Assembly: GCF_009831105.1 (NCBI RefSeq)
Contig: NZ_WUUQ01000002.1
Span: 690,001 to 722,000, forward strand
DNA: 32,000 bases
From: Copranaerobaculum intestinale
GTDB lineage: Bacteria > Bacillota_I > Bacilli_A > Erysipelotrichales > Erysipelotrichaceae
Direction of reading: 5' to 3'
Positions 4,330 to 29,882 of the stretch are shown piece by piece. Numbering within the stretch: position 1 is the first letter of the stretch; each line of letters begins with the position of its first letter. Made by a program: the position numbers and the translations under genes. Under the pieces are notes generated by a model that was given only the letters and a program-made list of their open reading frames with translations, was not told where the DNA came from and ran no database searches.

Positions 4330-5027
4330 ATCTGCTTCAATGCTGTCAGTTCAGCTTCATCCAAGTATCGCCAAGCTCCCGCATCCAGCGATTCATCCAA
4401 TGTCAGTGATCCCATTGTCAAACGCTTCAAATATAGTACTTCATTATCAACTGCCTGCATCATCCGTTTGACCTGATGATATTTACCTTCTTCAATTGTC
4501 AGCAAATACACTGTTTCCTTCAGCTGTTCGATCTTGGCCGGCAGACACTGTTCACCCTGATCGATGAGGATACCGGCCTGGATGCGTTTAATTGCTGCTT
4601 CCGTTAATTCCTCACGCACATGAACTTCATACGTCTTTGCCACATGATGACGCGGTGATAAAAGACGGTGCGCCAATGCCCCATCGTTGCTGATGAGCAG
4701 CAGACCTTCCGTATCAATATCCAACCGTCCGATTGGGAAACAATCCGGCGGCAGAATATCATCAATCAAATCCATCACTGTTTCGTGAAGAGTATCCTGC
4801 GTTGCGCTGATTACGTCCCGCGGTTTATTCAGCATGATATACACCTGAGGATCATATTGCAGGATTTCATCATCGATCCGTATTTCATCACGATCCTCCT
4901 GAATATTCAAGCCTGCTTTTAAGACGATTTCACCATTTACCTGAATCCGTTTCGCACGAATCATTTTCTTTACTTCATTACGAGTAAACAAACCGCTGTT
5001 TGCTATGTACTTTTCAATTCTCATCAT
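4326..5027 (-). CDS. rsuA: RsuA-family 16S rRNA pseudouridine synthase (S4 domain plus PseudoU_synth_2)
   Basis: GRLDIDTEGLLLISNDG catalytic motif and an N-terminal S4-like MRIEKYIANSGLFTRNEVKKMI. I place the start at ATG 5027 (MMRIEKY), which overlaps the TGA of the flippase gene, rather than at the ORF-track start 5090. Confidence 0.85.
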   Translation of the reverse strand: MMRIEKYIANSGLFTRNEVKKMIRAKRIQVNGEIVLKAGLNIQEDRDEIRIDDEILQYDPQVYIMLNKPRDVISATQDTLHETVMDLIDDILPPDCFPIGRLDIDTEGLLLISNDGALAHRLLSPRHHVAKTYEVHVREELTEAAIKRIQAGILIDQGEQCLPAKIEQLKETVYLLTIEEGKYHQVKRMMQAVDNEVLYLKRLTMGSLTLDESLDAGAWRYLDEAELTALKQI

Positions 5028-6640
5028 ACGTGATGTTTCTTTCCTTTCGACCCAATATGGAAAATTGTCTGTGGCAGTTGGAAGCACCAAGTGATGCCTA
5101 AGTAAACTGCTATCGCCAAAAGTCCGCTGACTCCCAGTTCAATCAAGCCGATAATCCGGCCGGCTGTATAAGGACGAAATCCAATGAATTGTAATCCCCA
5201 AGCAACTGCCCAAATCCCCAAAACACCAATCAGCATCAATACAAATTTACGTACAGTATACATCCATCTGACATGAAATCGCGTTGACAGATGATATGCA
5301 TTGATCAACAGGCAGACAAGCATCGCTGCCACAGATGACAGCACCGCTCCAGGAAATCCGAATTTTGCCAGCAAAATATAGGTAATCGAGAGCTTCACAA
5401 TCGTATAGACGCCTAAACTCTGCAGATTCTTTTTACGCAGACCTCCCGCCATCATCAGGGAGTTGATAACCGGCAGCACAGTACTGAAAAATCCCTCCAG
5501 GGCAAACCAGGACAGCAAATGTGCATTTAAATCCAGATTTGTAGAACCGAACATGACATAATAGATCGGCTTTGCAAAAACAAACAGACAAAACGAAATC
5601 GGCAGCGCAAGATACAATACGCTGTCAAGGCAGTCACTGATGTGCTTTCGCACTCCACGATCATCATGAGCAGCCAAAGATCTAGTTATGTAAGGGATAA
5701 TGGCAATACTGAAGCCAGGTGCCAATACCATTGGAATTGATAATAATTTATTGATGTTGGCATATACCGGTCCGGTAATATTCATAATTTCCTTTGAAGT
5801 CATCCCAAATGCGCCTAATCCAGACGGTAAAAAGAACGTGTTGATGATCATGTCACTGTATCCCAGCACAGCAGAAAGCAGGTAAGGAACAGCAATGAGT
5901 ATCATTTCGCGAATCAGCTCCCGTTTATCCTCATTGGACGCTGCTGTCTGCTCAACAGCCAGCTTTTCCAATTCGGGAATTCTGGTTTTATCGCGATGGG
6001 CAAATTGGATAATGGCAAATATCGCTGCTACAGTAGTCGAGATAACACCGAAATAAACAGCCCAAATCCGTTCCTGATGAAAGACATATACAGCCAGCGC
6101 ACTCATACCAAGCAGAAAAACTACGCGGCTGATCTGTTCCAGTATCTGATTGGCAGCATATATATCCATTTCATTCAGGCCCTGATAAAAGCCTCGCATC
6201 GAGCTTAATATGGCTACAAAGAATAAAGCAAACGATAAGACGATCAATACATTGCGCATCGTTGTCACATACTCTGGACCAACTACCAGTTTCGCAAAGA
6301 TACCGGATGTCAATAACAAAAACAGGGTGGTAACAGCCCCGACAACGATCATCAGCCGGCTGGCAAGCCGCTTGACTAAAAGCGAGGTTCGATAGTCTCC
6401 GCGCATCATATATTTGGATACCATCGTTGCAACCGCAAACGGAAAACCGCTGATGGATATATTCAATACATAGGAATAAATATTATAGGCAGTTCCATAA
6501 TAGGTTAGATTTTCTGTAGTTTGAATAATCGCATTAAACGGTACTACATAAATAATACTGATTACTTTAGAAATAAAAATACCGGCAGTGGTAATCAGCC
6601 CGCCGGCGATGATGGACTGTTTCGTTTTACTCATAATCAT
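5024..6640 (-). CDS. MOP-superfamily polysaccharide/lipid II flippase (YtgP/MurJ/SpoVB-like), polytopic membrane protein
   Basis: 538 aa and hydrophobic throughout. The N-terminus KQSIIAGGLITTAGIFISKVISIIYVVPFNAII...YYGTAYNIY is typical of YtgP-type flippases. Confidence 0.75.
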   Translation of the reverse strand: MIMSKTKQSIIAGGLITTAGIFISKVISIIYVVPFNAIIQTTENLTYYGTAYNIYSYVLNISISGFPFAVATMVSKYMMRGDYRTSLLVKRLASRLMIVVGAVTTLFLLLTSGIFAKLVVGPEYVTTMRNVLIVLSFALFFVAILSSMRGFYQGLNEMDIYAANQILEQISRVVFLLGMSALAVYVFHQERIWAVYFGVISTTVAAIFAIIQFAHRDKTRIPELEKLAVEQTAASNEDKRELIREMILIAVPYLLSAVLGYSDMIINTFFLPSGLGAFGMTSKEIMNITGPVYANINKLLSIPMVLAPGFSIAIIPYITRSLAAHDDRGVRKHISDCLDSVLYLALPISFCLFVFAKPIYYVMFGSTNLDLNAHLLSWFALEGFFSTVLPVINSLMMAGGLRKKNLQSLGVYTIVKLSITYILLAKFGFPGAVLSSVAAMLVCLLINAYHLSTRFHVRWMYTVRKFVLMLIGVLGIWAVAWGLQFIGFRPYTAGRIIGLIELGVSGLLAIAVYLGITWCFQLPQTIFHIGSKGKKHHV

Positions 6641-7209
6641 TCTTCTCCCGTCTCATTGCTGGTATCTTTCTCATAATTCTTATCGGTTTGAGACGTTTTC
6701 TGCTTTGCTTTTTTTTCATCATAGGAAAAATTGAAAAAAGCCTTTGAGGTATTCAGTTTAGCATAATCCTTCCAGGTTACCATGACCTGTAGGGTAAATG
6801 TATTCTTTTTAGTATAACCATTCAGCTGAATCCCTTTATGAAAACCTCGCTTGGCATTCACTTGAAAAGGTATCATATTGTATACGGCATCTTCATCATC
6901 GATAATACCTAGATTTGGCATCATATCGGTGGTATTCACTTTTGTGGAATCCACGATGATCGCCTCAATATCATACATTGCAATCTGCGGCTTATCGATC
7001 GTAACCGTATATTCATACTCGCCGTTTTTTGCTTTTGTTACATCCAGGTCATATCGAAACGGTATATTCTGTGACACGGCACCTTTATTATCCTCTACCG
7101 TCTGAATGTACTCGTTGTATTTTTCTTCCCGCTCCCGATCACTCAGCCCGCCGGCGGAACATCCAGCCGTAAGTCCTGCAATCATCAGCATAAGTAGGAA
7201 TTTGCGCAT
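6637..7209 (-). CDS. Lipoprotein of unknown function
   Basis: Signal peptide with lipobox: MRKFLLMLMIAGLTAG|CSAG. AGAGGTGA SD. Start/stop overlap with the downstream flippase gene. Confidence 0.75.
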   Translation of the reverse strand: MRKFLLMLMIAGLTAGCSAGGLSDREREEKYNEYIQTVEDNKGAVSQNIPFRYDLDVTKAKNGEYEYTVTIDKPQIAMYDIEAIIVDSTKVNTTDMMPNLGIIDDEDAVYNMIPFQVNAKRGFHKGIQLNGYTKKNTFTLQVMVTWKDYAKLNTSKAFFNFSYDEKKAKQKTSQTDKNYEKDTSNETGEE

Positions 7210-7226
7210 GCAATCACCTCTTCGCT

Positions 7227-7235
7227 ATTATAACA
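7227..7235 (-). promoter_or_regulatory. Extended -10 promoter (TGTTATAAT) of the lipoprotein-flippase-rsuA-folA-pdp operon
   Basis: Minus strand reads TGTGTTATAATAGCGAAGAGGTGATTGCATG. The TGn-TATAAT element sits about 18 nt upstream of the ATG at 7209. No good -35 element. Confidence 0.45.
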
Positions 7236-7255
7236 CACTTTCGATTATTCCTATA

Positions 7256-7285
7256 TGAAAAATAACGACCGTAATGGTCGTTATT
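7256..7285 (-). terminator. Rho-independent terminator of the DUF1540-type gene
   Basis: A 10-bp stem, AATAACGACC (7261-7270) with GGTCGTTATT (7276-7285), encloses a 5-nt loop and is followed by a U-tract on the minus strand. It overlaps the stop codon. Confidence 0.75.
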
Positions 7286-7445
7286 TACTGCAGTTACACT
7301 GGAAGGATTTACATTCTGTCTCATGGGAAGTATTTGGCAGGATGCAGTTATCGCAGCTCACTGAAATTTTTTCTGCGCAGCAATGATTCTCTTTGTGAAA
7401 CTTACAAGAATGTACGCTGCAAAGAATTTCCGTCTTATTGTTCAT
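7281..7445 (-). CDS. Small Cys-rich protein, DUF1540-like (54 aa); not in the supplied ORF track
   Basis: AGGAGGTG SD lies 5 nt before the ATG at 7445. Translation: MNNKTEILCSVHSCKFHKENHCCAEKISVSCDNCILPNTSHETECKSFQCNCSK. The C-x-V-x2-C...HC-x-A-x2-I-x-V pattern matches what I recall of DUF1540. The gene has its own terminator. Confidence 0.6.
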   Translation of the reverse strand: MNNKTEILCSVHSCKFHKENHCCAEKISVSCDNCILPNTSHETECKSFQCNCSK

Positions 7446-7474
7446 TGGGACACCTCCTACATCTTATTGTGGAG

Positions 7475-7666
7475 TCAATCCAGCGATTTATCCAAATAGA
7501 CGAGGAGGGCTGAGAAACAATAAATCTGTTCATCCTCCACCGCGGTTACCGCTGTGGAAAAGCTGATGTCGATCAATTCATACGCTTGATTTTCCTGAAG
7601 AAAGGAATTGATAGCATCGGTTAAATCATCTTCATGTTCCTCATCAAATACTTTTACCTGCACCAT
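7475..7666 (-). CDS. Cse60-like small sporulation protein (63 aa)
   Basis: MVQVKVFDEEHEDDLTDAINSFLQEN...IDISFS...IYCFSALLVY resembles B. subtilis Cse60/YteV as I remember it. GGTGAT SD. The family call is from memory only. Confidence 0.5.
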   Translation of the reverse strand: MVQVKVFDEEHEDDLTDAINSFLQENQAYELIDISFSTAVTAVEDEQIYCFSALLVYLDKSLD

Positions 7667-7713
7667 TTCTGATCACCGTATTCATTATAAACGAGGCGTA
7701 CATGCAAAGTATG

Positions 7714-8574
7714 TCAGATTAACGCATACCAGTGATCAAGTTCCTTTTGCATTGCTTCATCAACCGGGGTCAGCGGCAGCCGCAGCTGATTGAGACATAA
7801 CCCTTCCTTTTGAAGCAGATATTTCAGCGGACCAGGACTGGCTTGTTTAAATAATAAATCAGCTAGTGCTTTAAACGCCTGATCTTGTTCATCCAAATCC
7901 ACCGAAGTATCAAAGAGTGTCAGATAATTTTTCAAATCTTTCATATTAAGATGACCCATGACAGAAATAATACCGCACATTCCGGCTTCCAGCCCTTCCT
8001 TCAGATAGCCGTCCTCGCCAGAATATACCTTGAAATCAGGTCGAATGCTCTGTACCTGATGAACAATGTCCAAATCATGTGATGCCTGCTTCAAAGCTAC
8101 GATTTGATCGAAATCCCCAGCCAGATGACAAAGCGTATCTCCAGTGATGGATATTCCGGTACGTCCCGGCACATTGTATACCATGATCGGCAGCTTGGTG
8201 CTGGATACAATTTTTGCATAATGTTCATAAAGTCCTTGCTGGGAAGGCTTATTGTAATACGGCGTGACGATCAATAGGCCGTCAATATTGCGATGCTCAA
8301 CCTGCTTTACAAATTCACATGTCGCAGCCGTATCATTACTGCCGCAGCCAAACCAAATCTGGCCGCGACCGCGGGTACGTTCAATCACATAATCCAGAAT
8401 ATCTAATTTTTCCTGCATAGAAAGCGTCGGGGATTCTGCGGTGGTTCCGCATACGATAAATCCATCACAGTTTTCTTCCAATAATTTATCAATGATACGT
8501 CCCAGCGCATAAAAGTCGATATACAAATCCTCATCAAAGGGAGTTATCAGCGCGACTAATGCTTCTCGTTTCAT
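7714..8574 (-). CDS. dapA: 4-hydroxy-tetrahydrodipicolinate synthase
   Basis: 286 aa. ALITPF...GFIVCGTTAESPTLS, TPYYNKPSQQGLYEHY, YNVPGRTG and the active-site Lys context ALKQAS. Confidence 0.92.
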   Translation of the reverse strand: MKREALVALITPFDEDLYIDFYALGRIIDKLLEENCDGFIVCGTTAESPTLSMQEKLDILDYVIERTRGRGQIWFGCGSNDTAATCEFVKQVEHRNIDGLLIVTPYYNKPSQQGLYEHYAKIVSSTKLPIMVYNVPGRTGISITGDTLCHLAGDFDQIVALKQASHDLDIVHQVQSIRPDFKVYSGEDGYLKEGLEAGMCGIISVMGHLNMKDLKNYLTLFDTSVDLDEQDQAFKALADLLFKQASPGPLKYLLQKEGLCLNQLRLPLTPVDEAMQKELDHWYALI

Positions 8575-9161
8575 ATATGCTTCTCCTCATAACCTCTTAA
8601 AAGCGGCTGAAGCTGCACCTGTTCCATCGCAGAATCTAAGGTATCCTCTGTAAACTCCCACTTTGCTACAATACTGGTCGGTTTATTGAATGGTGAATCC
8701 TGTGCAAAGGGTATGGCATAAATGTGCTTCGTTGCCAAAAGACGCATCAGATTTACACCGGAGATTCCCAATCCGTCATTCGTCGCAATACCGATGACAA
8801 TATCCTTGTTGTTGCGGATCATTGCCTTCGCTGCCAAGGTAACCGGGCTATCATAAATACCATTTGCCAATTTTGCGCATACCGTAGCCGTCATCGGCAC
8901 AATACACATGATATCGTAAGCATTGGATGGACCTACTTTCTCCGCTTCAACGATTGTTGACATGACCTTATGACCACTGATGCGCTCCACCGCTTTGATG
9001 AAGTCATCACGCTCAAAAAAGCGGGTGGACAAGGTGTTGACATTTTCGGTTACAACGACCTGCACATCGTTGTTAGCAGCCAATCTCGTAAGCTGATCCA
9101 ACGCATGCTGATGGTTACAGAACGATCCGCATATTCCCATTAATATATGCTTGTTTTTCAT
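8571..9161 (-). CDS. dpaB: Dipicolinate synthase subunit B (flavoprotein)
   Basis: MKNKHILMGICGSFCNH...VVVTENV...IVPMTATVCAKLANGIYDSPV is SpoVFB-like. The start was moved to ATG 9161, which forms an ATGA overlap with the dpaA stop. The ORF-track start 9263 lies inside dpaA. Confidence 0.85.
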   Translation of the reverse strand: MKNKHILMGICGSFCNHQHALDQLTRLAANNDVQVVVTENVNTLSTRFFERDDFIKAVERISGHKVMSTIVEAEKVGPSNAYDIMCIVPMTATVCAKLANGIYDSPVTLAAKAMIRNNKDIVIGIATNDGLGISGVNLMRLLATKHIYAIPFAQDSPFNKPTSIVAKWEFTEDTLDSAMEQVQLQPLLRGYEEKHI

Positions 9162-9931
9162 GATTTCAATTCCTCCCGTATGGTTTCCGCTATGATATTG
9201 CCGGCGCTTTTCCATGCATAGATGGCCGGCAATGCCTTTGCCTTGATCAACTGGATGCCGCACAGCATTGCATCCTTCTCATCAATCAGTGCACCGCTGG
9301 CAATATCAATGATCAGCGGCGAAGGGTTCCAGCTCTCCATAAGCCTGCGGTCAATAATTTTTGCCGGGGCTGTATTGATGATAACATCTCCGCAGCCTTC
9401 AGCTTTCCATTCATCTATTGAAATACTGTCTGGTTCCCCCTGACAGACTCGTCGAACAATTCGTGTCGGAACCTCCAGCGCTTTCAGCCACTTCACAATT
9501 TCCTTTCCGCAGGTACCATAGCCGATGACATCTACCTGACAGTCCTTAATCGATTTTGCCGTGTGATCGATTAACAGACAAAGTGTTCCCTCCGCTGTCA
9601 GAACGGCATTTTGTTCTATTAGACGAGCATGCTCCATATAGAAGTCACAGTCATACGCCAGCTCCTTGATAAATGCATTCGGCAGTCCACAGAATACCTT
9701 AGTATGGTCACCTAAGGAAGCCCAAAATGACATAGGGATTGCCAGCTGCTGACCCTTAATCGTCATGATACCTTTATCATCAGGCCCAAACATCGGCAAA
9801 ACCAGCACATCCGGTATGGTTAATTTATCCATATTCGTAAATTCATTGATCAGATACGTATCATATGTTTTACAGAGATTAAAATACACCGCCTGCATTC
9901 TTTGATCACTATTTACAACGGCTATTTTCAC
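9158..9931 (-). CDS. dpaA: Dipicolinate synthase subunit A
   Basis: SpoVFA-like: VKIAVVNSDQR..., NAVLTAEGTL, VIGYGTCGKEI (Rossmann), ALPAIYAWKSAG. The start is reassigned to GTG 9931, 6 nt after AAAGGAGAGG. The ORF-track extension to 10015 would run through the tyrS terminator. Confidence 0.8.
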   Translation of the reverse strand: MKIAVVNSDQRMQAVYFNLCKTYDTYLINEFTNMDKLTIPDVLVLPMFGPDDKGIMTIKGQQLAIPMSFWASLGDHTKVFCGLPNAFIKELAYDCDFYMEHARLIEQNAVLTAEGTLCLLIDHTAKSIKDCQVDVIGYGTCGKEIVKWLKALEVPTRIVRRVCQGEPDSISIDEWKAEGCGDVIINTAPAKIIDRRLMESWNPSPLIIDIASGALIDEKDAMLCGIQLIKAKALPAIYAWKSAGNIIAETIREELKS

Positions 9932-9955
9932 AATGATCCTCTCCTTTTTACAGGC

Positions 9956-9982
9956 TATACTATGTGCAAACACCCAGAGTGT
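9956..9982 (-). promoter_or_regulatory. Candidate sigma-K-type promoter of dpaAB
   Basis: Minus strand reads AC-16 nt-CATAGTATA, which fits the AC / CATAnnnTA consensus. It ends about 25 nt upstream of the GTG start. B. subtilis spoVF is sigma-K dependent. Confidence 0.35.
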
Positions 9983-9995
9983 TAAAGAAAGATGC

Positions 9996-10027
9996 AAAAG
10001 AAAAAGGAACAGCATATTCCTGTTCCC
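9996..10027 (-). terminator. Rho-independent terminator of tyrS
   Basis: Stem GGAACAG (10006-10012) pairs with CTGTTCC (10020-10026) around a 7-nt loop. On the minus strand it is followed by TTTTTCTTTT. Confidence 0.65.
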
Positions 10028-15806: not shown

Positions 15807-16431
15807 GGTGTTTCTCCCTTTCCGCAAAAAATGAAGCTCCGATCTGATAAGTGTCATCAAGAATCAAAAGGCCTTTTTGTTTTTCTTCAACTAAGCCAAG
15901 CTCCCATTCACTGCACAGCATACCATGCGATACAGCGCCTCTTAACTTACCGTCGCGAATCAATCGGCCATTCGGCATTACGGCATTATTTAAAGCCGCC
16001 GGTACATAAATTCCAGGTGCAGCATTGTGAGCACCGCAGACGATCTGAAGCACTTCCGCTCCGACATCAACCTGACAGATATGCAGATGATCGCTGTCCG
16101 GATGATCCTCCATACGGATAACATGCCCTACTACGATACGCGGGGTAAAGTCATGCTGAAGCGGTTCGAATCCCACCGCCTGCAAACCCCCATTCACGCT
16201 GGCAAGCAACTCCTCGCTCATCGGCAGATAGCCGTCCCTTCCCGGATATTCAGCTTGACTGATATTATAGCCGAGCAGTTCACCTTTCTTATTATACATA
16301 GCAGTAACATTGCCTATGGACTTTGTCGAAGCTACTGTATCTTCATCGTTTACCTTTATCAGTAACAGGCCGGGAAAAGCCCGATCATTTTTAAAAACGC
16401 GGATAATATCTTTACTTTTTTCAATACTCAT
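15799..16431 (-). CDS. ytpR: YtpR-like tRNA-binding-domain protein
   Basis: 210 aa. The C-terminal OB tRNA-binding domain HPDSDHLHICQVDVG...LQIVCGAHN...GKLRGAVSHGMLCS is like PheT-N/CsaA. Confidence 0.8.
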   Translation of the reverse strand: MSIEKSKDIIRVFKNDRAFPGLLLIKVNDEDTVASTKSIGNVTAMYNKKGELLGYNISQAEYPGRDGYLPMSEELLASVNGGLQAVGFEPLQHDFTPRIVVGHVIRMEDHPDSDHLHICQVDVGAEVLQIVCGAHNAAPGIYVPAALNNAVMPNGRLIRDGKLRGAVSHGMLCSEWELGLVEEKQKGLLILDDTYQIGASFFAEREKHHV

Positions 16432-23770: not shown

Positions 23771-23795
23771 AAAAAAAGCACAAAATGTGCTTTTT
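23771..23795 (-). terminator. Rho-independent terminator of hemW
   Basis: AAAGCACA (23775-23782) pairs with TGTGCTTT (23786-23793). A T7 run follows on the minus strand. The hairpin abuts the hemW stop codon (23794-23796). Confidence 0.7.
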
Positions 23796-24885
23796 ACAGG
23801 AATTCTAACAGTACGTCATTCAAAAAATGTAAACCGTGATCGGTTGCGCGAAGATGACGATGACATTCGTAAAGCTCCCCTTTTTTTATATTTATTTCTT
23901 TGGCCTGCTTGAACACATCATCAAACGATACGTGAAAAGCATCTTCAAAAGCCTGATATGAGAGTCCTTCCTTCAGACGAAGCCCCATCATGACCATTTC
24001 AAACATTTCATCCTTTTGGGACAGCGTGATCCAGGAAGGCTCCTGTTCTCCTTTTATATACGCATGCAAATTCTTCGGCATGTCATAGCGCTGATGATCC
24101 AGCTTTCCGCTGGCGCCGCATCCAATTCCATAGAAATCATGGTAATACCAATACTGCTTATTATGCATGCTTTCATATCCCGAACGGGCAAAACTGCTGA
24201 TTTCATATTGATGAAATCCTTTATTCTCCAGTATCTGAATCGCTTTATCATACATTTCGCCTTCCAATGTCGGATCGATATTGGTAACACCCATTCGCCC
24301 GAATGCACTATGCTCTTCTATCGTCAGGGCATACAGCGAAATATGTGTGATCGGCAGGGCTGCAGCCTGTAATAAATCCGCTTCCCACATTGCCATAGTC
24401 TGGGTTGGAAGACCATAGATCAAATCGATCGAAATATTGTGTATTCCTACCTTTTTTAAATCCTGAATTGCATTTACAACATCATTTGTTCGATGACAGC
24501 GATTCATCATATGCAGTAAATCCGGATGAAAACTCTGTACGCCCATTGATATACGGTTCACGCCCGCTGTATGCATGCAGCTGATTTTATTGGCATGCAG
24601 CGATTCTACATTGACTTCAACCGTATATTCTTCCACACTTTGCCGGTAAGGCTTAAGCAGTTGAAACAGAGCTTCCAGCTGATCTGACTGTAAGCTTGTG
24701 GGAGTTCCGCCACCGATGTAAAGGGTTTTTAAATCAGTACTGGGCTGCTGTTTGGCAAGATCGAGCTTCAGCGCTTCCAGATACTGATCACTCAAGCCGC
24801 GATGATAGCCACAGCGGAAAAAATCACAATACGCACATATGGCATCACAAAATGGAATATGCACATACATTGACTGCGCCATCAT
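23794..24885 (-). CDS. hemW: Radical SAM heme chaperone HemW (HemN-like, oxygen-independent coproporphyrinogen oxidase family)
   Basis: 363 aa. YVHIPFCDAICAYCDF (CxxxCxxC). AAGGAGGT SD. Confidence 0.9.
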   Translation of the reverse strand: MMAQSMYVHIPFCDAICAYCDFFRCGYHRGLSDQYLEALKLDLAKQQPSTDLKTLYIGGGTPTSLQSDQLEALFQLLKPYRQSVEEYTVEVNVESLHANKISCMHTAGVNRISMGVQSFHPDLLHMMNRCHRTNDVVNAIQDLKKVGIHNISIDLIYGLPTQTMAMWEADLLQAAALPITHISLYALTIEEHSAFGRMGVTNIDPTLEGEMYDKAIQILENKGFHQYEISSFARSGYESMHNKQYWYYHDFYGIGCGASGKLDHQRYDMPKNLHAYIKGEQEPSWITLSQKDEMFEMVMMGLRLKEGLSYQAFEDAFHVSFDDVFKQAKEINIKKGELYECHRHLRATDHGLHFLNDVLLEFL

Positions 24886-24895
24886 CTAACCTCCT

Positions 24896-25642
24896 TTACA
24901 AATTTCCTATATCATCTTTCTCTTTTTCCTTTAAACGCATTCGATTATGGATGAAATAGACAAGTGCCTTGCAGGTTGGCTTCTCCAATACTCCGGTATG
25001 CAGCGATATCAGAGCAGGCTGTTCCTTATAAGCCCTTGTGATTGCCGTACGGATTGACTTTTCCACGCGGGTATACGTCGTACCGTGTTCCTTGGCTGTT
25101 TCTACCAGTATTTCTTTCATCGTTAAGCTGCAAAAAACCGGTTCACTCTTCAAATAAATCGCCGTTGTCAAATACTTGTGACCATTTAAATGAATAGGTA
25201 TTCCTTTTTGTTCCAGCAGACGTCCTACAAACGTCTTGATGTTATCCTTGATCGATTCTTCATACTGCTGAGTATCACTCTCTAAAGAAACAACATTAAA
25301 TATATCTTTGCACGTGTACGGTTTGATTAAAAAATTATCGATTTTATGCTTGATTGAGAAATGAACTGTCTTCCCATCTAATTCACTGTACAAAGCGATG
25401 ATATGTAAATCTTTCAGCTGATCATGATTACAAAGCTCCTCCATCAGAATTTCAGCTTTTTCCAAATTGATTTCAGGATTGATAATCAAAATATCCAAAT
25501 GAAGTGCCAACAGCTGATTAACGTCTTCCACAATCGTTGTAGAGGTACCTACCAGATTGCCGTTCTGGGTTTTGTTGATATTGATTAAAAATTCCTTAAT
25601 CAGATCCAGATCGTCTACACATAAGAAAATATTGTTAAGCAT
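24896..25642 (-). CDS. Spo0A-like regulator: degenerate receiver domain (Asn at the phospho-acceptor position) plus Spo0A_C-type DNA-binding domain
   Basis: 248 aa. The C-terminal half aligns by eye with B. subtilis Spo0A: GIPIHLNGHKYL vs GVPAHIKGYLYL, TTYTRVEKSIRTAITRAY vs TTASRVERAIRHAIEVAW, KPTCKALVYFIHNRMRL vs KPTNSEFIAMVADKLRL. Receiver: CVDD (acidic pair kept), DILIIN vs DVLVLD (Asn55, codon 25480-25478), LIKPY (Lys kept). Confidence 0.7.
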   Translation of the reverse strand: MLNNIFLCVDDLDLIKEFLININKTQNGNLVGTSTTIVEDVNQLLALHLDILIINPEINLEKAEILMEELCNHDQLKDLHIIALYSELDGKTVHFSIKHKIDNFLIKPYTCKDIFNVVSLESDTQQYEESIKDNIKTFVGRLLEQKGIPIHLNGHKYLTTAIYLKSEPVFCSLTMKEILVETAKEHGTTYTRVEKSIRTAITRAYKEQPALISLHTGVLEKPTCKALVYFIHNRMRLKEKEKDDIGNL

Positions 25643-25675
25643 TACCTGCGGTAAAACGATCTACTGCCTATGTAC

Positions 25676-25684
25676 ATTTTACCA
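25676..25684 (-). promoter_or_regulatory. Candidate extended -10 promoter (TGGTAAAAT) of the Spo0A-like gene
   Basis: Minus strand reads GAATGGTAAAATGTACAT, about 33 nt upstream of ATG 25642. The SD is weak (GCAGGT). Confidence 0.3.
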
Positions 25685-25695
25685 TTCTCCCTTCC

Positions 25696-26619
25696 CTATA
25701 CTACATAATACATAAATTTCTTCCCAATTCGCTGCTTTCGATACCAGTTCTGTTTAACGATACCCTCAAGCGAGTAACGAGCAGTTTCATAGCATACCTC
25801 TGCAAAAGTCATATAATCCCTGATCGTATAGTAATGGTCAACCTGATTATGGGTGACATAAAAACCTGCTTGATGCTCACTTAACATCGGATACTGCTGC
25901 AGCAGTTCCTGTTTCGATAATATTCGCACGTCATCTCGCGCATTCCTACCTAATGATAACACTTGTTTTGATAAATTCAACCGTAACTTGTCAAGAAACA
26001 ATAAAAGCTTATACGTAAGATCAAACTCAGCCGGACTTGAGATATTGATATCAAAAAGCTCTGAAATCGACAAAAATGATAACGGATATAGCATTTTATG
26101 GCTTCCTAACAAGAAAAGGACGAATGCATAACTGGTGACTTTATCAAAAAATTCCAATGCCACAAAAATTCGCAGAATGATGGAAATCTGATCATCAAGA
26201 AAGAAAGCAAAGTGTTTTCTTTGGATTGAATGGTCAATGCCCCATTGATCAAGGAAACGAAACAGCATCATTTCCTTATCGCCTGACAAAGCTATCTGCA
26301 TCTGATTTATGAATTGATGGGCCGTGGACTGCTGACGTTCATTTAGAATACGAGTATCACATTCCCATACAACATGCTCATTACGGTGATCAAAACTGAT
26401 CCCATAGAGCTGATCGGTCAGCTCATTGATACGATCGTTCACACAACTGTTTCTGGTAATATAGTACTCTTTTGCGAATGGGACAGACCAGCGAAACAAC
26501 CGCCGATAATTCTCAATTTCTATCCATATCGGATCGATCATCAGCATTTGAAAATCTTGCGCGACCTCTTCTTTTCGGCAATATTTCATATCGGTGTACT
26601 TCTGAGCAGTTTCAAACAT
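25696..26619 (-). CDS. Hypothetical protein (307 aa), possible C-terminal winged-helix domain
   Basis: AGGAGATG SD 5 nt before the ATG. No catalytic motif recognised; in particular there is no Fic HPFxxGNGR. The C-terminus YTIRDYMTFAEVCYETARYSLEGIVKQNWYRKQRIGKKFMYY looks like helix-turn-helix plus a beta-wing. Confidence 0.6.
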   Translation of the reverse strand: MFETAQKYTDMKYCRKEEVAQDFQMLMIDPIWIEIENYRRLFRWSVPFAKEYYITRNSCVNDRINELTDQLYGISFDHRNEHVVWECDTRILNERQQSTAHQFINQMQIALSGDKEMMLFRFLDQWGIDHSIQRKHFAFFLDDQISIILRIFVALEFFDKVTSYAFVLFLLGSHKMLYPLSFLSISELFDINISSPAEFDLTYKLLLFLDKLRLNLSKQVLSLGRNARDDVRILSKQELLQQYPMLSEHQAGFYVTHNQVDHYYTIRDYMTFAEVCYETARYSLEGIVKQNWYRKQRIGKKFMYYVV

Positions 26620-26694
26620 TTTCTCATCTCCTAGATCATTTTAGCAAAGTAATAGGAGAAAATGGTGATTCTCGACAAACGTTGTCAAAAGACC

Positions 26695-26720
26695 ACAAAA
26701 AAAGCCGCTGAACGGCTTTA
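26695..26720 (-). terminator. Rho-independent terminator downstream of the ABC remnant
   Basis: AAGCCG (26702-26707) pairs with CGGCTT (26713-26718). A T7 run follows on the minus strand. Confidence 0.6.
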
Positions 26721-26736
26721 CAAACGAATGATTTCA

Positions 26737-26941
26737 TCACAATGCTAGATATTCAACATGGGTTACAACGATCACAGTTTTTTGTTGTAAGGTAAATGCT
26801 TTTAGAATGGCGATTACTTCATTACGATTTTCTTGATCCAGATTACCGGTTGGCTCATCGGCGAGGATAATATGAGAAGGCTTCAAAATCAAACGCGATG
26901 AAGTCGAAACATAACAAAACAACAAATAATAGTTTTTTCAT
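26737..26941 (-). pseudogene. Remnant of an ABC-transporter ATPase (Walker B to H-loop only), joined out of frame to a signal-peptide-like start
   Basis: Frame A (TTG 26925) gives ...LILKPSHIILADEPTGNLDQENRNEVIAILK...KTVIVVTH, i.e. Walker B, D-loop and H-loop. Walker A, the Q-loop and LSGGQ are absent. Frame B (ATG 26941, GGAGAAAAGG SD) gives MKKLLFVVLLCFDF... and stops after 28 aa. Confidence 0.65.
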
Positions 26942-28943: not shown

Positions 28944-29882
28944 TTACTGCATGATTTTACCGATGTCATTCCGTCCGGAGCCATTAAAATACGCTTTGGC
29001 ATCTACCTTATTCTTTCCTTCCAGCTGTAATTCATCCACCAGAATAAAACCATTCGATGCGGCAATGGCATATCCGCCATCCATCATACCGATCATTTCT
29101 CCAGGCTGATATGCATGCGGCTGACGTTTCATCCGTACACGATGAAATTTCATTTTTTTCTGATTCAATATCGCGTAGCCGATCGGTGCCGGGATCAAAC
29201 CGCGAATATGGTTGTATACTTCTTGCACATCTTCGGTAAACGTAATCTTTTCTTCTTCCTTGGATATATTATAAGCAAAGGTTGCGGCTGCTTCATCCTG
29301 CTCGCGAAAGACGGCAGTACCATTCAGGATCAAAGGGATACATTCCATTAATAAATCAGCTCCAGCTAACGATAGCTTATCCGACAAAGAGCCGGTCGTA
29401 TCCTGCGGCTCAATGATAACCTTACGTTGTGCCATAACTGCCCCAGCATCCATTTTCTTTACCATTCTCATAATGGAAATACCGCTTTCTTTATCGCCGT
29501 TTATGATCGCTTTATGAATTGGCGCCCCGCCTCGAAGCTTCGGCAATAAGGATGCATGAACATTGATACTGCCATAGACAGGGGTATTTAATACAATATC
29601 AGGAATGATCTGACCGTAGGCACAGGTTATAATCAAATCCGGATTCCAAGCCAGGATATCCGTATACTCTGTTTTAATAGAAACCGGCTGTAAAACCGGC
29701 AGCTGGTTTGCCAGTGCCAATTCCTTTACCGGTGTCATCTGCAGAAGCTGCTTGCGTCCTACTTTTTTATCTGGCTGGGATACGACCCCTACCACCTGAC
29801 AATTTTCATTAAGCAACCGCTGCAGGATCGTGCAGGCAAATGCGGGCGTACCCATAAATACAATCCGTGTGGATTTTAACAT
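28944..29882 (-). CDS. fmt: Methionyl-tRNA formyltransferase
   Basis: 312 aa. IVFMGTPAFA, NVHASLLPKLRGGAPI. Confidence 0.92.
   Translation of the reverse strand: MLKSTRIVFMGTPAFACTILQRLLNENCQVVGVVSQPDKKVGRKQLLQMTPVKELALANQLPVLQPVSIKTEYTDILAWNPDLIITCAYGQIIPDIVLNTPVYGSINVHASLLPKLRGGAPIHKAIINGDKESGISIMRMVKKMDAGAVMAQRKVIIEPQDTTGSLSDKLSLAGADLLMECIPLILNGTAVFREQDEAAATFAYNISKEEEKITFTEDVQEVYNHIRGLIPAPIGYAILNQKKMKFHRVRMKRQPHAYQPGEMIGMMDGGYAIAASNGFILVDELQLEGKNKVDAKAYFNGSGRNDIGKIMQ

Follow-up and report, generated by a model that had tools for sequence, protein, structure and literature searches.

Spo0A is viewed as a master switch that exists in one copy and is gated by phosphorylation, and its gene as a marker of sporulation potential. 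The DNA analysed here, 32,000 nucleotides of Copranaerobaculum intestinale (contig NZ_WUUQ01000002.1 of assembly GCF_009831105.1, positions 690,001 to 722,000; henceforth the window), carries between lepA and hemW a gene whose product resembles Spo0A, and in which the initial annotation had read Asn in place of the phospho-accepting Asp. The locus thus raises the question of what such a protein can be: the organism's own Spo0A, a remnant of it, or a second regulator. Our answer, to which we would give a probability of roughly 0.6, is that it is a phosphorylation-independent DNA binder derived from Spo0A, itself under control of Spo0A or autoregulated, that would modulate 0A-box genes. It belongs to an undescribed, syntenic family of Spo0A paralogues with pseudo-receivers, restricted to Erysipelotrichaceae as far as seen. 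The gene and the relevant parts of its product are as follows (window coordinates).

24896..25642, minus strand: Spo0A-like gene, 248 amino acids, ATG at 25642 and TAA at 24898-24896; pseudo-receiver, long helix and Spo0A_C
25313..25642, minus strand: pseudo-receiver domain, residues 1-110, with predicted strands at 3-8, 28-34, 51-54, 80-85 and 103-106
25478..25480, minus strand: codon AAT for Asn55 at the phospho-acceptor position (B. subtilis Asp56), from sequence and alignments
25208..25312, minus strand: predicted continuous helix, residues 111-145, replacing the flexible Spo0A hinge (AlphaFold2 secondary structure)
24899..25207, minus strand: Spo0A_C-type DNA-binding domain, residues 146-248 (Pfam, Protein Data Bank (PDB) matches and Foldseek)
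25022..25075, minus strand: predicted recognition helix, residues 190-207, with T-R-V-E194-K195-S-I-R198 (AlphaFold2 model and alignments)

The C-terminal half is readily assigned. Pfam Spo0A_C (PF08769) matches residues 141-233 with 49.2 bits (E 5.7e-13, cutoff 25), far above chance, and in a phmmer search of the PDB the C-domains of Spo0A, 1FC3 and 1LQ1, come up with E ~1e-6. Together with the fold match to the same two structures described below, the Pfam score bears out the Spo0A DNA-binding domain that had first been recognised by eye. The N-terminal half scores 17.9 bits with Pfam Response_reg, under the cutoff of 30.2; searched alone, it matches the receivers of Erysipelotrichaceae Spo0As. 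Computed isoelectric points are 4.6 for the acidic N-domain and 9.5 for the basic C-domain (residues 131-248). The whole protein reaches 41.7 bits with TIGR02875, the NCBI equivalog model of Spo0A, and so stays below the equivalog threshold of 200.

An exhaustive HMMER search of 1.84 billion protein representatives gave 527 matches at E<1e-3 and 30 at E<1e-10, with about 25 full-length proteins of 230-250 amino acids and 24-40% identity. Overall there are some 40 full-length relatives, in the same range of identity, forming a family without a name; the sole source name among the strong matches was "hypothetical protein D5266_02960 [bacterium c-19]". Searches with the single sequence saw little of this family: a k-mer-indexed protein search returned one allele, 99% identical, and neither an exact-protein lookup of the window sequence nor a genome scan with the single window protein gave a match. 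Patterns for the genome scan were drawn from a six-sequence alignment, the 20-sequence alignment being too diverse for patterns. Scanning one genome per GTDB species then located full-length members in Erysipelotrichaceae only, namely in an uncultured Erysipelotrichaceae metagenome-assembled genome (MAG), a Longicatena MAG, [Eubacterium] hominis, Amedibacillus dolichus DSM 3991 and Candidatus Merdibacter; a further carrier is "bacterium c-19" (GCA_009917405.1). A metagenome scan added a few loci, all from lineages already sampled, and a viral contig collection scanned with the family signature held no member. No paper on this family came up when the literature was searched for a Spo0A paralogue with a pseudo-receiver. 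Also among the better matches were receiver-less tandem proteins with two to four Spo0A_C domains (P0013, P0017, P0025, P0023 and P0028), which is an odd build.

All named genomes, and bacterium c-19 too, have the gene between lepA and hemW, in the shared order gpr – spoIIP – formyltransferase-like gene – lepA – (orphan gene of ~300 amino acids) – Spo0A-like gene – hemW, followed in most loci, as far as they extend, by rpsO, pnp, an M20 peptidase gene and trmB. On this chromosomal synteny across genera, and on the negative viral scan, we reject a mobile-element origin. What had been described as an "unusual addition" to this window is nothing of the kind, but a member of a conserved and rapidly evolving family fixed between lepA and hemW in Erysipelotrichaceae. 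Its position is stable and its sequence is not: identity to the window is 78-85% for LepA, 76-83% for PNPase and 46-54% for HemW, and 26-36% for the Spo0A-like protein.

Is this gene an additional spo0A or the only one? In two relatives the genomes themselves provide the answer. A single Longicatena contig (JAVWIF010000003.1) holds both a canonical spo0A (L029), in the order recN – spoIVB – spo0A – dinB-like – spoIIM, and the Spo0A-like gene (L005), and bacterium c-19 likewise has a canonical spo0A (L036) besides its family member (L027). Since canonical and Spo0A-like genes share an organism in both cases, the latter is a true paralogue in the Longicatena MAG and in bacterium c-19. A search with P0027, the best-scoring full-receiver canonical Spo0A of the unbiased search (cluster of C. 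innocuum WP_240272498.1), also recovered canonical proteins that bear the names Amedibacillus, Longicatena, Erysipelotrichaceae and bacterium c-19. The paralogue status proposed at the outset is thus seen directly in two relatives; for the organism of the window we infer it, with the canonical gene presumably lying beyond the 32 kb. That no canonical spo0A is found among the genes of these 32 kb would suit the opposite reading, in which the organism has no other Spo0A and the protein is an orthologue that no longer needs phosphorylation. But in the Longicatena MAG and in bacterium c-19 the syntenic gene is accompanied, at another site, by a canonical spo0A whose product is 70-76% conserved, and the TIGR02875 score lies far from its cutoff. 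We reject that reading, extremely improbable as it is, because of this co-occurrence.

The receiver half appears to have lost its switch. In the PDB search alignment Asn55 is paired with the acceptor Asp of the solved receiver 3N53, and in the alignments with canonical proteins it falls under the acceptor Asp of the B. subtilis, C. innocuum, Longicatena and bacterium c-19 Spo0As, so that formal alignment confirms the reading made by eye, codon AAT at 25480-25478 included. The same alignments agree with the initial annotation that Tyr85/Ser86 occupy the Thr position and that the acidic pair (D10-D11, in VDD) and the Lys (K107, in LIKPY) are kept in the window protein; its catalytic quintet is therefore incomplete, with Asn55 at the acceptor, Tyr85 at the Thr position, and D10, D11 and K107 present. 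The protein is thus derived from Spo0A, with a pseudo-receiver that cannot take up phosphate at the canonical site.

This picture changes somewhat when the family is considered. Over 42 members compared with B. subtilis Spo0A, the acceptor column is mostly Asp or Gln, then Glu, with single occurrences of Asn (the window protein only), His, Arg and Thr. The receiver Lys is kept in three of the 42, the window protein among them, and is otherwise replaced by Ala, Glu, Gln or His; of the acidic pair, generally one residue is retained. With the acceptor variable, the Lys mostly lost and one acidic residue generally left, the whole family is one of pseudo-receivers, and the window protein is an atypical member, having lost the acceptor Asp and kept the acidic pair and the Lys. 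Both of these initial observations hence hold for the window protein and not beyond it: the acidic pair and the Lys are lost in the family as a whole, and the Asn is unique to the window lineage, many members keeping Asp in an otherwise dead pocket. Consistent with this degeneration, all 21 strong family matches (E <= 2.4e-42) have PF08769 and none has PF00072 in precomputed Pfam assignments. The N-terminal half is nearly devoid of invariant residues (Pro108 in both alignments, Asp50 in one). Because the phosphorylation pocket is dead, the kinase or phosphorelay signals that govern Spo0A should be unable to switch the protein.

The fold has nevertheless been kept, to judge from the AlphaFold2 model of the window protein built on the 21-sequence family alignment (mean predicted local distance difference test score, pLDDT, 90.8). 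The model comprises a receiver-like domain (residues 3-106) in which strand and helix alternate five times, a single helix 111-145, in the middle of which pLDDT falls to 68-82, and a C-domain with helices at 153-166, 175-186, 190-207, 209-212 and 224-247. In Foldseek comparisons with the PDB the C-domain superposes on the DNA-bound Spo0A structure 1LQ1 with a template-modelling (TM) score of 0.80 and a root-mean-square deviation (rmsd) of 2.5 Å and on 1FC3 with a TM score of 0.83, the rmsd to the two ranging over 2.5-2.9 Å. The N-domain is receiver-like, with a TM score of 0.75 both to DesR (4LE2) and to the Spo0A receiver 5WQ0. For the whole chain the best matches are the response regulators EutV and VraR, and AmiR is also present. 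EutV and AmiR carry a long alpha5 helix.

The DNA-reading half shows the opposite pattern of constraint. The window protein has TRVEKSIRTAITRAY where canonical Spo0As have the near-invariant SRVERAIRHAIEVAW, a divergence that the initial annotation had pointed out and that translation and alignments substantiate; RVEK in place of RVER is family-wide. G154, V193, E194, R198 and A204 are invariant across the family alignments, and T189, R192 and K195 are so or nearly so (the exceptions are Leu in P0009, Cys in P0012 and Arg in P0011), giving an invariant or near-invariant core in this half of G154, A183, T188, T189, R192, V193, E194, K195, R198, A204 and K-P-T. E194, K195 and R198 align with B. 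subtilis E213, R214 and R217, which we take to be the base-contacting residues of the Spo0A-DNA structure; at these positions Glu is found in 42, Lys (a conservative replacement) in 41 and Arg in 42 of the 42 members. As the helix-turn-helix is under constraint at all three base-contact positions, the protein most likely still binds 0A-box-like DNA, and binding of such boxes by the window protein itself is plausible from its sequence.

Two segments are missing. Opposite B. subtilis residues ~227-240, which presumably form the sigma-A-activating segment, the alignment with four canonical Spo0As has a nine-residue gap, and the AlphaFold2 model offers just a four-residue helix (209-212). The hinge is ~17-20 residues shorter than in canonical Spo0A, also by alignment gap. 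This combination suggests a protein that would still read 0A-like DNA, perhaps with shifted specificity, and would not activate sigma-A RNA polymerase in the manner of Spo0A. With nine residues lost and a long helix for a hinge, we would expect a constitutively assembled, presumably dimeric binder that occupies 0A-type sites without such activation.

The distribution of constraint also bears on a role in protein-protein contacts, in which the pseudo-receiver would titrate kinases or Spo0E-type phosphatases, or heterodimers would poison or retarget phosphorylated Spo0A (Spo0A~P), DNA binding being secondary. The high confidence of the predicted receiver fold fits such a role, as do the closeness of the N-domain to Erysipelotrichaceae Spo0A receivers and the retention of D10, D11 and K107 in the window protein, which leaves the pocket surface still receiver-like. 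A mimic of a conserved partner surface would, however, be expected to be conserved, and the pocket residues vary in the family. Moreover, between the Longicatena and bacterium c-19 paralogues, the one genome pair compared, identity is 28% overall, lowest in the N-domain (21%) and higher in the C-domain (36%), and the strongest constraint of all falls on the recognition helix. We therefore consider this role unlikely.

How the gene is expressed gives a further indication. It appears to be part of a small operon, the other elements of which are:

25696..26619, minus strand: orphan gene of 307 amino acids, probable operon start, 53-nucleotide gap to the Spo0A-like gene
26671..26679, minus strand: 0A-box-like element TTTGTCGAG, core TGTCGAG, six of seven positions as in TGTCGAA, conserved across lineages
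26638..26646, minus strand: extended -10 element TGCTAAAAT, exactly 24 nucleotides 3' of the box
26701..26719, minus strand: terminator-like hairpin parting the upstream genes from the operon, preceding the orphan gene
23794..24885, minus strand: hemW-like radical-SAM gene, starting 10 nucleotides past the Spo0A-like stop, with an AGGAGG of its own

hemW is probably co-transcribed with the Spo0A-like gene. The promoter was found by cross-genus comparison of the region 5' of the orphan gene, where box and -10 element recur at the same distance:

Window: TTTGTCGAG, 24 nucleotides, TGCTAAAAT
Erysipelotrichaceae MAG: TTTGGCGAA, 24 nucleotides, TGCTAAAAT
Longicatena: TTTGTCGAA, 24 nucleotides, TGATAAACT
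Bacterium c-19: TTTGTCGAA, 24 nucleotides, TGCTAAAAT
Amedibacillus dolichus: TTTAGCGAA, 24 nucleotides, TGCTATACT

From box to -10 element these promoters span 26638-26679 (minus strand) in the window and 8974-9015, 8976-9017, 9054-9095 and 8942-8983 in loci L004, L005, L007 and L027. The arrangement of box, 24 nucleotides and TGnTAnAnT is thus present in five lineages, that is, in every one with an intergenic gap at this place, and the spacer sequences are unrelated. A search for the pattern on both strands of ~230 kb of window and related loci gave five occurrences, each at this promoter. By our estimate the chance of at most one mismatch to TGTCGAA at a fixed position of AT-rich sequence is ~1e-3, and four independent repeats at that chance each mean that the promoter arrangement is not fortuitous. 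Spo0A contacts box bases G2, C4 and G5 (PMC3485338), of which C4 and G5 are invariant in all five lineages. Placing the -10 element at -12 to -7 puts the box core at about -46 to -40, centred near -43. Such a position is typical of Spo0A-activated sigma-A promoters, e.g. spoIIG. The operon is most likely either a direct target of Spo0A~P or autoregulated by the paralogue, either of which fits the sequence. The signal is local to this promoter: the window has a single perfect core TGTCGAA, at 16324, against 4.9 expected by chance, so there is no 0A-box enrichment window-wide, and a generic promoter scan of the window did no better than on shuffled sequence.

Two carriers depart from this organisation. 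[Eubacterium] hominis has neither the 307-residue gene nor the box, and in its loci (L006 9785-9967; L041, L042) the Spo0A-like gene comes directly after lepA; in Merdibacter the end of lepA and the orphan gene overlap.

Orthologues of the 307-residue protein are found in five of the six genome loci. Its C-terminal ~70 residues are strongly conserved (...YYTIxxYMxxxxVCYETARYSLExLVxxxWYxKQKxGKKFxYY) and look like a winged helix by eye; the protein matched nothing among Pfam, NCBIfam, PHROGs and PDB profiles, its single-sequence structure model was unusable (pLDDT 37.6), and it contains one borderline hydrophobic stretch at residues ~137-175. Speculatively, it may be a partner or co-regulator of the Spo0A-like protein. 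This neighbour matters for the idea that the paralogue is still controlled by a signal of an unconventional kind, be it phosphorylation of another residue (Ser, Thr, Tyr or a neighbouring Asp), a small ligand, or the 307-residue protein acting at the pseudo-receiver. Partner-controlled pseudo-receivers are known, e.g. AmiR-AmiC, and AmiR is itself among the fold matches. Paralogue and partner are conserved together and diverge at about the same pace (34% identity for the partner between Longicatena and bacterium c-19, beside the 28% of the paralogue), and many family members have Asp in the acceptor column. The operon, however, is devoid of kinase and sensor genes, Asn stands at that position in the window protein, and [Eubacterium] hominis carries the gene without the partner. 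Such control is in our view rather unlikely.

The same genome pair gives the measure of how fast the paralogue evolves, since LepA of Longicatena and bacterium c-19 is 85% and canonical Spo0A 69.6% identical. Very rapid divergence is what would be expected of a decaying, functionless spo0A duplicate carried along between two housekeeping genes. The nearest allele, 99% identical and present in three metagenome assemblies (L001 3589-4335, L002 1474-2220, L003 635-1381), lends some colour to this: it differs by C71R, E194G and Y229C, with three non-synonymous changes to one synonymous, and E194G strikes an invariant DNA-contact position. One member is moreover named "hypothetical protein" by NCBI. 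Yet intact open reading frames of constant length are found at this site in at least seven divergent lineages, their invariant and near-invariant residues cluster in the helix-turn-helix, both domains are confidently predicted, and a dedicated promoter is conserved. We judge it improbable that the gene is without function.

The evidence argues best for a lineage-specific duplicate of Spo0A, in which the receiver has turned into a pseudo-receiver, its fold kept and its pocket dead, and the helix-turn-helix has stayed under constraint, 0A-box-like DNA most likely still being bound. The paralogue would on this reading brake, filter or lock some of the genes that Spo0A controls; competitor and decoy mechanisms, both put forward in the initial annotation, are conceivable. 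The three genes, coding for the 307-residue protein, the Spo0A-like protein and HemW, would form one operon read from the promoter with the conserved 0A box 5' of the extended -10 element, and given this box their expression is probably Spo0A~P-induced or autoregulated, giving a feedback or feed-forward loop. As far as it went, the initial interpretation is largely right, and it is incomplete.

Several observations weigh against our reading. The protein evolves very fast (28% identity in the one genome pair, against 70% for canonical Spo0A and 85% for LepA), and its target may not be the 0A box, since Arg-to-Lys at a G-contacting position may alter specificity. The box could be there for canonical Spo0A alone and be uninformative on what the paralogue itself binds; [Eubacterium] hominis, as noted, does without both box and 307-residue gene; and the 32 kb of the window hold no canonical spo0A. 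The E194G change at the invariant recognition-helix Glu of the nearest allele would fit relaxed constraint in this lineage; taken with the speed of evolution, it leaves room for weakened constraint, or for lost function, in some parts of that lineage.

An extension that we put forward tentatively is a switch in two tiers: in sporulating Erysipelotrichaceae, Spo0A~P would induce, by way of the conserved 0A-box promoter, a phosphorylation-blind copy along with a co-evolving orphan partner of DNA-binding-like appearance, and these would sit on 0A-type sites and so lock in or limit the Spo0A programme without kinase input. The fast evolution of paralogue and orphan could then come from conflict with phage-borne Spo0A mimics.

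In terms of known systems, the protein is a pseudo-receiver response regulator with a Spo0A_C output domain. Atypical or pseudo-receiver regulators include AmiR, HP1043/HsrA, ChxR, FrzS and C. difficile CmrT, and the protein resembles them in having a receiver fold without a working acceptor site, which presumably serves to dimerise or to bind partners on behalf of an output domain that is constitutively competent. The likeness is architectural, with no homology beyond the receiver superfamily, and none of the five is known to have Spo0A_C as its output domain or to be tied to sporulation. With canonical Spo0A (TIGR02875; B. subtilis 1LQ1/1FC3; C. innocuum WP_240272498.1) it shares the layout of receiver fold and Spo0A_C, a helix-turn-helix superposing at 2.5-2.9 Å, the E213/R217 positions, the KPT(N)S motif and a neighbourhood of sporulation genes. 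Unlike canonical Spo0A, it has Asn55 at the acceptor, a pocket degenerate family-wide, RVEK for RVER, nine residues gone at the sigma-A-activating helix and a shorter, predicted helical hinge, it lies between lepA and hemW and not beside spoIVB, and it evolves several times faster. It hence does not count as Spo0A proper, from which it departs at the acceptor Asp, the equivalog score, the signature and the sigma-A segment.

Two further classes invite comparison. The main comparative survey reports paralogues of spo0A in Clostridiales only, the Erysipelotrichia genomes that it covered having a single spo0A (Galperin et al. 2022 preprint, 10.1101/2022.02.25.481979); as in those Clostridiales, the gene described here is a second member of the Spo0A family besides the canonical one. 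Gut phages carry receiver-less Spo0A_C proteins, for which a signal-independent action on the Spo0A regulon has been proposed (PMC10294663). Like these and the multi-repeat Spo0A_C proteins, the window protein has a Spo0A DNA-binding domain freed from phosphorelay control; unlike the phage proteins, it keeps a folded receiver-like domain and is chromosomal and syntenic across genera. With these features, and with no member on a viral contig, it does not belong to the phage or plasmid class of stand-alone Spo0A_C proteins.

Erysipelotrichia lack the Bacillus phosphorelay, and the initiation of sporulation in them is largely unknown (PMC13492147). A phosphorylation-blind copy of Spo0A with a 0A-box promoter, if our reading is true, would be an added regulatory layer in common human-gut spore formers, with a testable handle in one gene, one promoter box and one candidate partner. 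There is also a consequence for annotation, as "spo0A present" calls based on Spo0A_C can catch this paralogue, now labelled hypothetical.

Some minor features of the locus complete the description. Immediately after the orphan stop, in the gap before the Spo0A-like gene (25643-25695, minus strand), stands a strong Shine-Dalgarno (SD)-like element, GGAAGGGAG, followed by a mini-ORF (open reading frame) of five codons, ATG GTA AAA TGT ACA TAG. The Spo0A-like ATG itself is preceded by a weak AGG only, which is too close, and purine-rich SD-like elements occupy the same place in other genera; SD-like element and mini-ORF may reflect translational coupling or a leader ORF. The sporulation genes of the window are intact (gpr, spoIIP, dipicolinate-synthase-like genes and a spoVB-like gene) and therefore fit with a sporulating lineage. 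Those at 5024-10015 (minus strand) comprise a spoVB-like flippase gene (5024-6640), a dapA-like gene (7714-8574) and, at 8571-10015, a flavoprotein and 2-hydroxyacid-dehydrogenase-like pair resembling dipicolinate synthase B and A. The formyltransferase-like gene (28944-29882, minus strand; Formyl_trans_N and Formyl_trans_C) lies between spoIIP and lepA in most related loci and is absent from that of bacterium c-19. Between lepA and the operon (26737-26925, minus strand) there is a 62-codon 3' remnant of an ATP-binding cassette (ABC) transporter ATPase gene, with the Walker B motif LADEPTGNLD; a near-identical strain (L001, 1-2511) has at this site an intact 209-residue ATPase and a 626-residue upstream gene, which points to a strain-level deletion or rearrangement.

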